From IMG/VR virus record IMGVR_UViG_2909282993_000005: DNA of 27,486 nucleotides; one strand, 5' to 3'. This DNA comes from a virus (lineage: Duplodnaviria > Heunggongvirae > Uroviricota > Caudoviricetes). The translations under genes and the position numbers were made by a program. The notes under the pieces were generated by a model that worked only from the letters and a program-made list of their open reading frames with translations, did not search any database and was not told the origin of the DNA. Shown here piece after piece: positions 3,019 to 22,731 of this stretch. The number at the start of each line of letters is the position of its first letter. The first letter of the stretch is position 1.

Positions 3019-3600
3019 TTACCCTATAGGTGCTACTGGCCATTCAATATCCGGTGCAGTTGTTGTATTAACACGGTTCAGCAACACCCGATACTTCTTC
3101 CAGGCTTCCAGCAACGAGATTTCTTCCTCCGTTGCAATTTCCAGATCTGCAGCATCCTGAAGCGGCGCAATATGCTCACTGGCTACCTGCATCAGGTTGT
3201 TTTTTGTTTCTTCCGCCTCCCGGATCCGGAACAGTTTTTCTGCTTCCGTATCCTTCACCCAGGCTGTGCCGTTCCACTTCTGATATTCCCCTTCCGGCGA
3301 TAACCAGGTGACATTTTCCGGTAACGAGCCAAGTTCAGAAATAAATAACGCGTCGCCGGAAGCCACGTCATAGACGGTTTTTCCCCGATGATCTTCAACG
3401 AGATGCCACGATGCCTCATCACTGTTGAAAACAGCCACAAAGCCAGCCGGAATATCTGGCGGTGCAATATCGGTACTGTTTGCTGGCAGACCTGTATGAG
3501 GCGGAATATATGCGTCACCTTCACCAATAAATTCATTAGTTCCGGCCAGCAGATTATAAATTTTTATGGTCCGTGGTTGTTCACTCATTCTGAATGCCAT
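3019..3600 (-). CDS. Tail fiber assembly protein (Tfa family)
   Basis: 193-aa ORF starting [54 protein letters not shown] and ending [13 protein letters not shown]...IEWP, characteristic of lambdoid TfaQ/TfaR/TfaE proteins. Its start overlaps the stf stop. Confidence 0.85.
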
Positions 3601-4468: not shown

Positions 4469-4762
4469 ATGAAAAAAATGTTGTTTTCTGCCGCTCTGGC
4501 AATGCTTATTACAGGATGTGCTCAACAGACGTTTACTGTTGGAAACAAACCGACAGCAGTAACACCAAAGGAAACCATCACCCATCACTTCTTCGTTTCG
4601 GGAATTGGACAGGAGAAAACTGTTGATGCAGCCAAAATTTGTGGCGGCGCAGAAAATGTTGTTAAAACAGAAACCCAGCAAACATTCGTAAATGGATTGC
4701 TCGGTTTTATTACTTTAGGCATTTATACTCCGCTGGAAGCGCGTGTGTATTGCTCACAATAA
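4469..4762 (+). CDS. bor: Bor lipoprotein (serum-resistance / outer-membrane lipoprotein of lambdoid phages)
   Basis: 97-aa product MKKMLFSAALAMLITGCAQQTFTV...GIYTPLEARVYCSQ with lipobox LITGC and an AGGA RBS. It is on the opposite strand to the lysis genes, as in lambda. Confidence 0.85.
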   Translation: MKKMLFSAALAMLITGCAQQTFTVGNKPTAVTPKETITHHFFVSGIGQEKTVDAAKICGGAENVVKTETQQTFVNGLLGFITLGIYTPLEARVYCSQ

Positions 4763-4852
4763 TTGCATGAGTTGCCCATCGATATGGGCAGCTCTATCTG
4801 CACTGCTCATTAATATACTTCTGGGTTCCTTCCAGTTGTTTTTGCATAGTGA

Positions 4853-5254
4853 TCAGCCTCTCTCTGAGGGTGAAATAATCCCGTTCAGCGGTGTCTGCCA
4901 GTCGGGGGAGGCTGCATTATCCACGCCGGAGGCGGTGGTGGCTTCACGCACTGACTGACAGACTGCTTTGATGTGCAACCGACGACGACCAGCGGCAACA
5001 TCATCACGCAGAGCATCATTTTCAGCTTTCGCATTAGCTAACTCCTTCGTGTATTTTTCATCCAGTGCAGCAACATCACGCTGGCGCATCTGCATGTCAG
5101 TAATTGCCGCGTTCGCCAGCTTCAGTTCTCTGGCATTTTTGTCGCGCTGGGCTTTGTAGGTAATGGCGTTATCACGGTAATGATTAACAGCCCATGACAG
5201 GCAGACGATGATGCAGATAACCAGAGCGGAGATAATCGCGGTTACTCTGTTCAT
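4853..5254 (-). pseudogene. Rz (i-spanin), frameshifted: the Rz N-terminal 117 residues read through into the Rz1 frame and end with the Rz1 C-terminal peptide [16 protein letters not shown]
   Basis: Product [64 protein letters not shown]... is lambda-Rz-like. After ...VDNAASP the frame switches at a G5 run (plus 4904-4908), which lambda-type Rz/Rz1 needs to be one base longer. Confidence 0.65.
4885..5034 (-). pseudogene. Rz1 (o-spanin lipoprotein) embedded in Rz, with altered and truncated C-terminus from the same 1-nt indel
   Basis: Embedded ORF with AAGGAG RBS: [44 protein letters not shown] then TGRHR* in place of the expected [16 protein letters not shown]. Lipobox VVGC present. Confidence 0.55.
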
Positions 5255-5748
5255 TGCTGACCCCACAAACAGATTTCACGCTCAATCTCACGACGAGTCA
5301 TGAGACCTTTCCATTGCTTACCGCCAGCATATGTCCAGCGACGTAGCTGATCACATGCGCCTTTGATATCGCCCTGGTTTATTTTGCGAAGAAGCGTCGA
5401 TGTTCTGAAATTGCCAGCGCCCACGTTGTAAACGAACGAGTAAAGAGCGCCGCGCGTTGTTTCCGGTATATCAACTTTGATGTACGGGTTAATTTGTCTG
5501 GCGACCGTGGCAAGGTCTTTATTCAGGAGGGCTTTGCATTCTGCTTTGGTATACGTTTTACCGAGCATGATGTCTTTTCCTGTATGCCCGTGACATACAG
5601 TCCATACACCAACAATATCTTTGTATGGTATGTAGCTGACACCTTCCAGACCATCGTTACCACTTGGGCCAGTAATTAACACTGATGCTATAGCAATTGC
5701 TCCGCCACCAATAGCAGCAGCAACGGCTTTTCGTAATGATGGAGGCAT
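5251..5748 (-). CDS. SAR endolysin (phage 21-type lysozyme R, T4-lysozyme-like muramidase with N-terminal signal-arrest-release domain)
   Basis: 165-aa product [59 protein letters not shown]... with a Gly/Ala-rich SAR helix followed by the catalytic E-D-T region. Start/stop overlaps with S and Rz. Confidence 0.9.
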
Positions 5749-5963
5749 TATTCACCTCTCGCAGCCTTGCGCTTATCTTCTTTAATCTTGAAATAAAGGT
5801 TTGTCAGGTACGTCAGCAGGCCAAATACCAGGCTACCCAGCACACCTATTGCTGCCCACTGTGAGGGCGTGACTTTATCGAGCAGCTGTAAAAACCAGTA
5901 GCCAGCACTGCCTGCGGAGGTGCCGTAGGCAATGCCTGTTGAAATTTTGTCCATGGATTTCAT
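5748..5963 (-). CDS. Pinholin (phage 21 S21-type holin/antiholin with dual start MKSM)
   Basis: 71-aa product [71 protein letters not shown] with two TM segments. It lies immediately upstream of the SAR endolysin with an ATGA overlap. Confidence 0.85.
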
Positions 5964-6214: not shown

Positions 6215-6610
6215 CTAACCTCGCATGTCAAAGCCAGATTTCTGAAAATCTCTGTAGACTTCCGGATTGTTGAAGGCCGGAAATTTGGCTTTATGAGCTG
6301 CGGACTTTATCGCTTCGCAATAGGCTTTATCACCGTTACTGGTAGATATTTTTAACGCCGTGCCATCCTGAGAGAATTCCATATGCAACCTGCATTTTTT
6401 CCCTTTCCAGTTATGCGGCTCATCAAGTTTGGCATTAATTGCAGCTCTGATTCCCCGCGCTTGCGCCCCCCATTCATCCTGATCATCCCAGCGTCCTGAA
6501 CTGCAACTACCTGTAGCAGTAGTTTTGTGGCAATCTGAAGGGTGTAAAGGTGTGCATCCCGCAACAAAACCGACCCAAAAAGTCAACATAACGATTTTCT
6601 TTAATCCCAC
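6215..6610 (-). CDS. Lipoprotein with TolA domain-III-like C-terminus (moron)
   Basis: 131-aa ORF with signal peptide and lipobox (FVAGC). The C-terminus KKCRLHMEFSQDGTALKISTSNGDKAYCEAIKSAAHKAKFPAFNNPEVYRDFQ resembles the TolA C-terminal domain (GKTCTLRIKLAPDGMLLDIKPEGGDPALCQAALAAAKLAKIPKPPSQAVYEVF, from recall). Confidence 0.7.
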   Translation of the reverse strand: MGLKKIVMLTFWVGFVAGCTPLHPSDCHKTTATGSCSSGRWDDQDEWGAQARGIRAAINAKLDEPHNWKGKKCRLHMEFSQDGTALKISTSNGDKAYCEAIKSAAHKAKFPAFNNPEVYRDFQKSGFDMRG

Positions 6611-6760
6611 TTCTTGCTCCTCAATCCATTAAAATCTCAGCAATAGTAGTTGTTACGTCCGCCACTGGCTCAGAGCTGACTATCCGCTAAATTTAGCTCA
6701 GTGCCGTAGCTGTGTCAGAACAAACCTAAGCCGAAACCGTTTATTACAAAACAATAAATA

Positions 6761-7189
6761 TCAGGGTTTAAAATCCAGCACCCCATTTTGAAATACTTTA
6801 TATACTTCCGGCGAAGGGGGGGCAGGTATATCAGCATTCTTTATCGCATTCATCGCTTCACGACATAAATCGAGGTCTCCACTTTCTCTTTTAACCTCCA
6901 GTAGAAGGCCATTCGGGGCCATATGCATTCTCAGTGTACACTCTTTTCCTGAATACTTACTCGCATCCCCGAACTGTTTTTCGATGGCGCTCTTGATTTG
7001 ATGGGCATACAGACGGATATTCTCACTAACATCAGAAGTACGTTCAGATGAACTCACATACTGTGTCTCTATTGCTTTATCGGAGTAATATGATGTACGG
7101 TCATGATAATTTGTCGATACAGCATCAGTGCACCCGATAATAATCCCACTAATAATCAACGTAAGAATTGATGCGCTACGAAAACCCAT
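6761..7189 (-). CDS. Lipoprotein with TolA domain-III-like C-terminus (paralog of 6215..6610)
   Basis: 142-aa ORF with lipobox (IIIGC). The C-terminus GKECTLRMHMAPNGLLLEVKRESGDLDLCREAMNAIKNADIPAPPSPEVYKVFQNGVLDFKP closely parallels the TolA C-terminal domain and the neighbouring ORF. Confidence 0.7.
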   Translation of the reverse strand: MGFRSASILTLIISGIIIGCTDAVSTNYHDRTSYYSDKAIETQYVSSSERTSDVSENIRLYAHQIKSAIEKQFGDASKYSGKECTLRMHMAPNGLLLEVKRESGDLDLCREAMNAIKNADIPAPPSPEVYKVFQNGVLDFKP

Positions 7190-7306
7190 TTTTCCTCACA
7201 TATGTCATATAGTAAAGGATTATATATACCGTTGTTTTGGACGCTCAAACAGCGAATCAGATCAAATAAAACGCACATTTGTTAACATTTACACAAAGTC
7301 TGCGTG

Positions 7307-7327
7307 GGATATTCTGAAAGAATATCC
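7307..7327. promoter_or_regulatory. 21-bp perfect palindrome ggatattc-tgaaa-gaatatcc (candidate dimeric regulator binding site)
   Basis: Read directly: 8-bp inverted arms around a 5-nt spacer, about 120 bp upstream of the lipoprotein gene start at 7189. No T-run, so not a terminator. Confidence 0.3.
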
Positions 7328-7722
7328 ATAATGTGGAGAGAATCTATTGAAGTGCATGGTGCCGGGTGCCTCCCGGTGAATTCAGTACCAGCACCTGAAT
7401 CCGCGATTATCCCATATACCTACTCGCTGATTGCCCCTCCGCACAGGGGGATTCACCATGCCAGTTTCTTTTAACAAACTCCCCGCAAACCAGAGAACAG
7501 TCAACCGCCTGAATTGTGAAGTATTTAAAAATTTCTCCCGCTAACTGATACCCGGCTAACAGTCTGGCGTTTTCTTTTTCAGCAACGGGAAAGCAACAAC
7601 CACCACACCCGCCACCAGCACACCGTCAGCCAGCACTGACATTATCCGGCTGCTGCAATGCCATTCACAAAAACAGTAAGCAATCACTTTTTACCGTAAC
7701 AGGTGATAATCCAGATATGTAT

Positions 7723-8186: not shown

Positions 8187-8263
8187 TGGCGCGCTGTACT
8201 GGATTCGAACCAGTAACCGATTGCTTAGAAGGCAATTGCTCTGTCCGGCTGAGCTAACAACGC
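8187..8263 (-). tRNA. tRNA-Arg (anticodon UCU)
   Basis: 77-nt cloverleaf GCGTTGTTAGCTCAGCCGGACAGAGCAATTGCCTTCTAAGCAATCGGTTACTGGTTCGAATCCAGTACAGCGCGCCA. 7-bp acceptor stem, T-loop GGTTCGAATCC, anticodon loop CTTCTAA (U33, anticodon TCT, A37), encoded CCA. Confidence 0.85.
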
Positions 8264-8367
8264 TGAATACCGATAATGGACCGCTATCGGGGACCCGCCC
8301 CCCCCCGCACCAACAACCCTGTTATCGTGTCGTCTGCTCTTCCTGATAAGCTCATGGCGGTTTGTGA

Positions 8368-8443
8368 TGGTGGCCCTTGCTGGATTTGAACCAGCGACCT
8401 GGCGATTATGAGTCGCTCGCTCTCACCACTGAGCTAAAGGGCC
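8368..8443 (-). tRNA. tRNA with CAU anticodon, most similar to tRNA-Ile2 (lysidine type, ileX/ileZ-like); elongator Met not fully excluded
   Basis: 76-nt cloverleaf GGCCCTTTAGCTCAGTGGTGAGAGCGAGCGACTCATAATCGCCAGGTCGCTGGTTCAAATCCAGCAAGGGCCACCA. Anticodon loop CTCATAA; strong resemblance to E. coli ileX from recall. Confidence 0.8.
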
Positions 8444-11288: not shown

Positions 11289-11444
11289 TTACTCCTCAGG
11301 TTCGTAAACTGTGAAGACAGCGACCTCCGTCTGGCCGGTTCGGATTCGTAACTCGCAGAGGTCTTTCCTCGTTACCAGTGCCGTCACTATGACGGTTAAA
11401 CAGATGACGATCAGGGCGATTAACATCGCCTTTTGCTGCTTCAT
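11289..11444 (-). CDS. hokD: Hok/Gef-family type I toxin (HokD/RelF-like, 51 aa); in-frame upstream extension to 11501 corresponds to a Mok-like reading frame
   Basis: MKQQKAMLIALIVICLTVIVTALVTRKDLCELRIRTGQTEVAVFTVYEPEE, near-identical to HokD/RelF from recall: single TM helix plus conserved C-terminal periplasmic tail. Confidence 0.9.
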   Translation of the reverse strand: MKQQKAMLIALIVICLTVIVTALVTRKDLCELRIRTGQTEVAVFTVYEPEE

Positions 11445-12164
11445 AGCCTGCTTCTCCTTGCCTTTCGGCACGTAAGAGGCTAACCTAGATTTGCCGTTCA
11501 TAGATTGAGCCTCAGATTAATGTTAAGCGTCTTGCAGGACGCGTAATGTTAACTGGGGCTTTTCTCTATCTGCCTTTGGTGTTCATGCCTGAGGCAGATA
11601 GCCTCAAGCACCCGCAGCAATTCTACTTAACTCCCGTCACCTCGCCAATATAAAATCAATCAGAAAGGCGATCCATAAGAACAACAGCAAGACAATAAAT
11701 TGCCATTACAGCCGCAATAGCTAGCGCACATTTGAGAACCAGCACGACAACCTCCTGTATTGGACGTACACCAGTTCTGATAAATATGAGGCTGTCTCAT
11801 CATTGATTCAATATAACTATTGGGTATAGTTTCTGTGATTTTGTTCTGTAGAAATGGAACACAACAACCAGTCACCACCAGCACTTCTTTAAATACGCCA
11901 AGTCCGACGCAAGCTAACCTTCTAGTCCGCTTTGAGCGAGGAGCGGACCAAACCCGGCCAACTGACTCTTAAAGGGGCCGCAGGAATTTTTCGTCTGAAC
12001 TTTCGAAGCTCCTCTCCCTGAAGACAGAAAACTTCTGTGTGCTGTGGGAATATTGAATCTTTGCATTAGATATAAATAATTTTATCCCGCCTGAAGTTTA
12101 CATTATTTTATTTATCTGTTTTTCTAAATCAGACTGCACTCCTTACTTAAATCAGGAGCCAGTC

Positions 12165-22367: not shown

Positions 22368-22678
22368 TAAAGGAGTTCTCCACGGGTGAGGTGGAGTGCG
22401 TGTGCCGGACACGGGTGAGCATCCGGCACTGACAGTTTACTGAAAGGATATTTCCCTGAAAAGTCAGACCATAACGCGAAAGCGCACGGCGAGGTAGCTG
22501 GTTCATAGATAGCCTGTCGTTAAATTTTCGTCGACCGTGCGCTTCCGGTTGTGGCAATCCGCGAAATGGCGCGGCGGTAAGTATGGCGGGGTTATTCCTT
22601 CCCCGTTGAGGACACCGGGTTGTCAGGTTGACCATACGCTTAAGTGACAACCCCGCTGCAACGCCCTCTGTTATCAAT

Positions 22679-22731
22679 TTTCTGGTGACGTTTGGCGGTA
22701 TCAGTTTTACTCCGTGACTGCTCTGCCGCCC
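22679..22731 (+). ncRNA. dicF: DicF small RNA (cell-division inhibitor sRNA targeting ftsZ mRNA)
   Basis: 53-nt sequence TTTCTGGTGACGTTTGGCGGTATCAGTTTTACTCCGTGACTGCTCTGCCGCCC matches DicF from recall, followed by a T-run (22732-22736) and preceded by a structured ~300-nt leader. Confidence 0.8.

Follow-up and report, generated by a model that had tools for sequence, protein, structure and literature searches.

The two spanin genes of a lambdoid lysis cassette, Rz and the embedded Rz1, are disrupted together by a run of five G residues that is one base short, and the missing base is probably a homopolymer error of the consensus, in which case the true sequence is G6 and both genes are intact. 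The cassette lies in a stretch of 27,486 nucleotides, referred to here as the window. According to this reading, a G6 run would have been under-called by one base and left so in a long-read consensus, and the contraction would have its origin in sequencing or assembly, with the cell itself unaffected.

Reading of the frameshift site

By direct reading of the window, the plus strand at the site is agtcGGGGGaggc, where the G5 run at 4904-4908 corresponds to C5 on the coding (minus) strand. At the homologous place in lambda (46305-46323), the coding strand is GCAGCCTCCCCCCGACTGG, with C6. The features affected are the following:

4904-4908: G5 homopolymer, the frameshift site, one base below the G6 of lambda and of four same-locus relatives
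4853-5254, minus strand: chimeric Rz ORF of 133 aa, made of Rz 1-117 (TMD, CC1 and linker) plus 16 aa in the Rz1 frame, ending at the Rz1 stop
4885-5034, minus strand: truncated embedded Rz1 of 49 aa, with signal peptide, lipobox Cys20 and penta-proline, normal up to P44, then TGRHR and a stop, without D45-G60
4794-4901, minus strand: displaced Rz C-terminal coding sequence, undamaged and out of frame, 35 codons plus the original stop, spanning CC2 and Cys152

The C run codes for Ser-Pro-Arg in Rz and for Pro-Pro-Pro in the embedded Rz1. As Rz1 sits in the +1 frame within Rz, the loss of one base takes Rz into the Rz1 frame and takes Rz1 into a frame in which a stop follows five codons later. 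A preliminary description of this region had proposed that a G run one base too short disrupts both genes at once, and this is borne out by the G6 found in lambda and in four near-identical relatives at the same locus, in which the 153-aa RzpD is intact. The coordinates, the count of 117 codons and the position of the G5 run given in that description are all exact on direct reading and translation. This state is a deterministic property of the sequence rather than a statistical signal.

Residues 1-117 of the Rz ORF share 114 of 117 identities (97%) with residues 1-117 of lambda Rz, and the alignment ends exactly there. The Pfam family PF03245 (Phage_lysis) matches with its positions 1-90 of 126 on residues 29-117 (E=5e-35), and positions 24-40 of the 41 of the Rz1 profile (PF06085) map onto residues 116-132. 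Residues 118-133 are the Rz1 C-terminus, as had been claimed. With respect to an i-spanin, the N-terminal transmembrane domain followed by the periplasmic coiled-coil CC1 is present in the ORF; the full periplasmic domain, with CC2 (121-150) and up to Cys152, is missing, the Rz frame being left after residue 117.

The converse loss, that of the own C-terminus of Rz1, was also found as described. With respect to an o-spanin, Rz1 has a signal peptide with lipobox Cys20, Cys29 and the penta-proline at 32-36 (...QCVKPPPPP). Its distal segment with W46, L50 and I54 is absent: 44 normal residues are followed by TGRHR at residues 45-49 and a stop, and the PF06085 profile is matched at positions 1-25 of 41 only (E=8e-10). 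The distal segment that Rz1 lacks turns up at the end of the Rz ORF.

The rzpD gene of the relatives ends at the position equivalent to the stop of the displaced Rz tail. In the repaired frame, Rz would run from 5254 to 4794 with the Rz1 start at 5034 inside it, a layout as in lambda. Lambda-type C-termini are expected in this Rz/Rz1 lineage, and the earlier reservation that alignments might reveal otherwise falls away. A 137-aa version of the Rz product with a GTG start had no match among the recorded proteins in an exact-protein look-up.

The lysis cassette lies in a defective prophage

Judged from its sequence, the window is a lambdoid prophage at the Qin locus, in a defective state, and comes from the ETEC O169:H41 (L7) lineage of E. 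coli. Four complete E. coli chromosomes have the same element, flanked by a truncated ydfJ and by rspB, at the Qin prophage site (ydfJ'..int..rspB). The region around the spanin genes contains:

4794-5963, minus strand: lambdoid lysis cassette
5748-5963, minus strand: holin S (EssD / phage-21-type, 71 aa), intact; PF04971, E=8.7e-36
5251-5748, minus strand: endolysin R (RrrD-type, 165 aa), intact; PF00959, E=1.3e-45
4469-4762, plus strand: bor/iss lipoprotein gene, convergent with Rz as in lambda; PF06291
3600-4193: tail-fibre gene without its N-terminus, ~270 nt from bor
3019-3600: tail-fibre assembly gene, with an Rfam IS009 match inside it at 3059-3257

Holin and endolysin, said at the outset to be left intact, are both full length and identical to the proteins of the relatives. 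Head and tail genes are absent from the element, in which the truncated tail-fibre gene is the neighbour of bor. As a remnant without virion genes, it does not need spanin function for the release of virions.

The element shows further particularities. Between bor and the tail-fibre end, a deletion has removed the entire region for packaging, head and tail, and a block of non-phage genes (12165-18421) lies between hok/sok and the replication genes, coding for an MFS transporter, a gamma-glutamylcyclotransferase, a LysR regulator, a DUF2254 protein and a BCCT transporter. The window and the relatives E1373 and 2014EL-1345-2 have an intact BCCT gene, which carries a frameshift in F8111-1SC3 and an internal stop in F6326-C1. 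Two small lipoprotein-like genes (6215-6610 and 6761-7189, minus strand), situated directly upstream of the holin gene, are labelled in the relatives as 'cell envelope integrity TolA C-terminal domain-containing protein' and 'TolA'; these TolA-domain mimics (6215-7189) occupy a position where lambdoid phages often carry moron genes. Rfam matches at gathering score were obtained for the sRNA STnc100 (114 bits) at 7300-7490 and for the sok antitoxin RNA (112 bits, beside hokD) at 11439-11613, both ordinary for Qin/Rac-like prophages. A C9 run at ~8289-8297 lies between tRNA genes at 8190-8263 and 8371-8443, downstream of a Q-like antiterminator gene; F6326-C1 has C10 at this place, and the remaining three relatives share the C9 of the window.

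The condition of the element bears on the main alternative, namely a recent slipped-strand deletion during replication, by which G6/C6 lost one base and both spanin subunits were inactivated in an unselected remnant. This is quite possible, although we do not hold it to be the probable explanation. In its support, the prophage was already decayed, with a truncated tail-fibre gene, no head or tail genes and non-phage cargo, so Rz and Rz1 are unprotected by selection; and it counts against a consensus error that, in a defective prophage, there is no selection opposing a real frameshift.

Private differences among five assemblies of the same prophage

The relatives at the same locus, obtained with a 5-kb query against the complete RefSeq E. 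coli genomes, were F8111-1SC3, O169:H41 F6326-C1, O169:H41 2014EL-1345-2 and the lineage-7 reference L7_E1373_ETEC, the last, according to its paper, assembled from PacBio combined with Illumina data (PMC8085198). The comparison with the homologous site in related prophages, which the preliminary description had recommended, gave G6 in all four, and no record with G5 in a Qin-locus context was retrieved by this query among the complete RefSeq E. coli genomes. All four encode an intact 153-aa RzpD that is exactly WP_001301134.1. The window aligns end to end with three of them at 99.98-99.99% identity, and 2014EL-1345-2 aligns in three pieces as a result of an IS insertion and a deletion. The differences private to each assembly were:

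Window (27,486 bases, five-way alignment): G6 to G5 at 4904 and C5 to C4 at 22601; no substitutions
F8111-1SC3: three one-base contractions in G/C runs; no substitutions
F6326-C1: one extra C in the C9 run and one SNP
E1373: one SNP only, with no homopolymer indels
2014EL-1345-2: one IS insertion and one 1.2-kb deletion

PGAP reports contractions of F8111-1SC3 as frameshifts, in the BCCT transporter and in the integrase. Across the five assemblies, 6 homopolymer indels stand against 2 SNPs among the private differences. In mutation accumulation of wild-type gamma-proteobacteria (Vibrio), the indel rate is ~1/5 of the substitution rate, and substitutions are still the majority in the absence of mismatch repair (PMC5854121). 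If the indel-to-substitution ratio is that of Vibrio, at an indel fraction of 1/6, the finding of at least 6 indels among 8 differences has p=4e-4. Given this 6:2 excess over the mutation spectrum, most such indels are most simply read as long-read consensus errors, and the window shares the profile: in the five-way alignment its contraction is private, confined to a homopolymer and accompanied by a second one of the same sort, with 0 private SNPs.

A consensus error is thus favoured because none of the four other assemblies of this prophage at this locus has the contraction, because the two differences private to the window are both G/C-run contractions, with no substitutions, and because the same class of difference dominates the sister assemblies and is missing from the PacBio-plus-Illumina E1373. 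For a slipped-strand deletion, these observations are unfavourable, since the change is seen in one of five near-identical assemblies and is accompanied by a second private contraction without any private SNP, a spectrum contrary to that expected from mutation, and the sister assemblies have private contractions of the same kind in ordinary chromosomal-type genes. The absence of secondary decay, the displaced Rz tail being intact, speaks likewise for an error and against a mutation. The preliminary description had offered real decay of the lysis module and a homopolymer sequencing error as two explanations; that choice stands, and the pattern of differences among the relatives favours the latter.

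Other details of the window argue against a consensus error. The C9 run is called as in E1373, so homopolymer calling in the window is not grossly bad, and C4, the state at the second private site, is widespread as a natural allele (1585 records). This second site (22601-22604), with C4 versus C5 in the four relatives, falls in non-coding sequence, 76 nt upstream of the DicF sRNA (22680-22731). Its use as a marker of rare error was rejected, as C4 occurs in 1585 complete-genome records that include K-12 MG1655. The run at 22601 is naturally polymorphic among Qin-like prophages.

Occurrence of the five-base run in other records

When exact matches of 72-74 nt around the run were counted in complete E. 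coli genomes, G5 was found in 38 records, G6 in 3459 and G7 in 3 (from two strains), with a probable G8 in 1 record, so that G6 makes up ~99% of the exact-match copies. The G5 carriers are scattered over unrelated serotypes, and by our own count ~24 of the 38 share a strain-name or accession series with other G5 records, examples being five UID23092200xx genomes and four B1.H1/A1.S1 genomes. Three records are 100% identical to the 504-nt Rz region of the window, G5 included, and have the same 133-aa product: CJZ79_RS27735 (NZ_CP022912.1), EXA01_RS06505 (NZ_CP035846.1) and ACYTVL_RS19085 (NZ_CM142673.1), labelled 'rzpD, frameshifted' by PGAP.

These counts can be turned in either direction. The presence of G5 in 38 complete-genome records over unrelated serotypes supports a slipped-strand deletion, as a site that mutates in nature. 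On the other side, a consensus error is favoured because contractions far exceed expansions (38 vs 3) and because the G5 records cluster in series. The sequence surrounding the run occurs 2-4 times per genome, which also favours an error, because polishing with short reads would be least effective in such a repeat.

In the ETEC O6:H16 lineage, where the gene lies in a DLP12 remnant, G5 is present in three of five assemblies. This counts against a consensus error, the proportion being high if errors occur at only ~1%. However, the G5/G6 state and a SNP 1.5 kb away fail the four-gamete test, all four allele combinations being found among the five assemblies; therefore, either the run changed at least twice there or some of the assemblies are wrong. 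Clean inheritance of G5 in this lineage was rejected by this failure, and the pattern fits recurrent error or recurrent mutation. The G5/G6 state is also incompatible with the structure of the left flank (fimZ versus IS1). One of the G5 assemblies, 2011EL-1370-2, has a private A8 to A7 change that frameshifts appY, and the four-gamete failure together with this second homopolymer contraction favours a consensus error.

The exact 133-aa product was found on 13 contigs, of which eight are <10 kb and one is a 128-kb draft contig (GenBank KDY21292.1). The short contigs measure 1.5-7 kb, at least six of them being Logan assemblies, and contigs of this length are typical of short-read assemblies. 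A Qin-locus context was found in none of the 13; their backgrounds are other prophages, 97.5-99.9% identical to the window and diverging outside the cassette. A sister 133-aa allele, P0004, is present on 64 contigs from NCBI, Logan and ENA, and proteins of the fusion type (Rz::Rz1) form a cluster of 437 members in public protein collections. In IMG/VR, G5 gave 5 hits, of which 4 stem from a single metagenome with lambda-control-like contigs in it, and G6 gave at least 120 hits.

The occurrence of G5 on contigs from other prophage backgrounds and of P0004 on 64 contigs speaks against a consensus error. For a slipped-strand deletion, in turn, the short contigs and the draft contig of other prophage backgrounds, and the occurrence of G5 within the 437-member cluster, are favourable evidence. 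On these records, the G5 allele can also be real in some strains.

Lambda control-like contigs

Many sequences in the metagenome assemblies, either contigs of ~3.56 kb or the ends of contigs, correspond to lambda 45,042-48,488 with the change 45352 G>A (Sam7). They look like reads of the Oxford Nanopore lambda control strand. They encode either the 133-aa Rz::Rz1 fusion (C5) or a 152-aa 'double-frameshift' Rz, in which C5 is combined with (AG)4 to (AG)3 42 nt downstream, so that translation passes through 15 residues of the Rz1 frame and then returns to that of Rz; this 152-aa protein has entries in 125 index blocks. In the two cleanest of these contigs, Sam7, C5 and (AG)3 are the only departures from lambda. 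The C5 and (AG)3 states could be systematic basecalling errors or, equally, a true difference of the template. As a positive control for error at the run, these contigs were rejected: 16 of 16 have C5, but they were chosen by their C5 protein.

Predicted effect on lysis and functional alternatives

In saturating mutagenesis of lambda Rz, each nonsense allele tested up to codon 152 was lysis-defective and only R153X was tolerated, which indicates a strict chain-length requirement; CC2 comprises residues 121-150, and its end contacts Rz1 (PMC5295617). In lambda Rz1, W46X, W46R/C, L50P/R and I54N were lysis-defective, and stops from codon 55 on were tolerated (PMC5295617). A defect in either subunit results in spherical cells within an intact outer membrane (PMC5295617). 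The Rz of the window has nothing of its own past residue 117 and its Rz1 nothing past residue 44, and on this analogy both spanin products should be null if G5 is real. If the cassette were then expressed, the wall would be lost and the outer membrane retained, with spherical cells stabilised by Mg2+. The double null predicted from lambda genetics (PMC5295617) is in keeping with a slipped-strand deletion that inactivated both subunits.

A functional or regulated state of the G5 allele would need a phase-variable switch at the C run, a -1 ribosomal slip on C5 that restores full-length Rz, or a working Rz::Rz1 chimera. It is extremely unlikely. The existence of G5, G7 and probably G8 variants, the homoplasy of G5/G6 in the O6:H16 lineage and the many contigs with the 152-aa variant, which regains the Rz frame after 15 residues, could be cited for it. 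However, off lengths are rare (38 + 3 versus 3459 G6 records), the frameshifted arrangement is not conserved, the four close relatives having an uninterrupted Rz ORF, and the 152-aa variant was found only on noisy lambda-control-like contigs. The chimera is without CC2 and Cys152 and the truncated Rz1 without W46-I54, all of which are needed in lambda (PMC5295617).

Phase variation was rejected as a candidate on tract length and allele frequencies, with a tract of 6 bases and 38 G5, 3459 G6 and 3 G7 records. A run of 6 bases is shorter than the tracts that are known to phase-vary. Programmed ribosomal frameshifting was rejected on conservation, as lambda and the four relatives have a single uninterrupted Rz ORF. 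It is also very doubtful that the C6 run is a genuine recurrent, possibly reversible hot spot at which one slip would silence both spanin subunits and G5 lysogens might be favoured because leaky or induced holin and endolysin would spare the outer membrane.

Whether error or trivial recent mutation, the contraction is an ordinary event of little biological weight. If real, it would add one more pseudogene to a remnant without virion genes, with a phenotype that is already textbook lambda genetics. Its value is for annotation: apparent 'Rz::Rz1 fusion' proteins arise repeatedly from a six-base run that two overlapping genes have in common within a multi-copy prophage repeat, and frameshifted rzpD calls at this run need a check at the level of reads before decay of the lysis module is inferred from them.

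Comparison with known systems

The cassette resembles that of lambda (NC_001416: Rz 45966-46427, Rz1 46186-46368) in the gene order S-R-Rz(Rz1)-bor, in the +1 frame of Rz1 and in the same proline-rich region encoded by the same C-rich stretch. In contrast to lambda, one C is gone from the C6 run at lambda 46312-46317, by which the Rz of the window loses CC2 and the C-terminal domain and Rz1 loses residues 45-60. The holin and endolysin also depart from lambda S and R, being of the phage-21/DLP12 type (PF04971, RrrD).

Further counterparts are RzpD/RzoD of E. coli cryptic prophages (WP_001301134.1, 'prophage endopeptidase RzpD'), to which the Rz of the window is identical up to residue 117 and, in the displaced tail, for the rest; the difference is the one-base contraction. 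The same 133-aa product is given by the RefSeq 'rzpD, frameshifted' pseudogenes and by GenBank KDY21292.1. Unlike the window, which is at the Qin locus, the RefSeq frameshifted copies sit in DLP12-locus prophages (argU/intD, nmpC upstream), and therefore they are independent occurrences. The allele is already known, as a frameshifted pseudogene in RefSeq and by its product in GenBank, and is nothing new in kind.

Phase-variable contingency loci with poly-G/C tracts are found, for example, in Neisseria and Haemophilus, and with these the window shares a coding homopolymer whose change in length switches the reading frame. It differs from them in that the tract is of 6 bases, is off in ~1% of copies, has a strong contraction bias and gives no sign of selection for switching. 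As a one-base G/C contraction private to one assembly and causing an apparent frameshift, the site rather resembles the residual homopolymer under-calls of long-read assemblies, a class to which it would probably belong together with the under-call-type cases of the sister assemblies, namely the BCCT transporter and the integrase in F8111-1SC3 and appY in 2011EL-1370-2.
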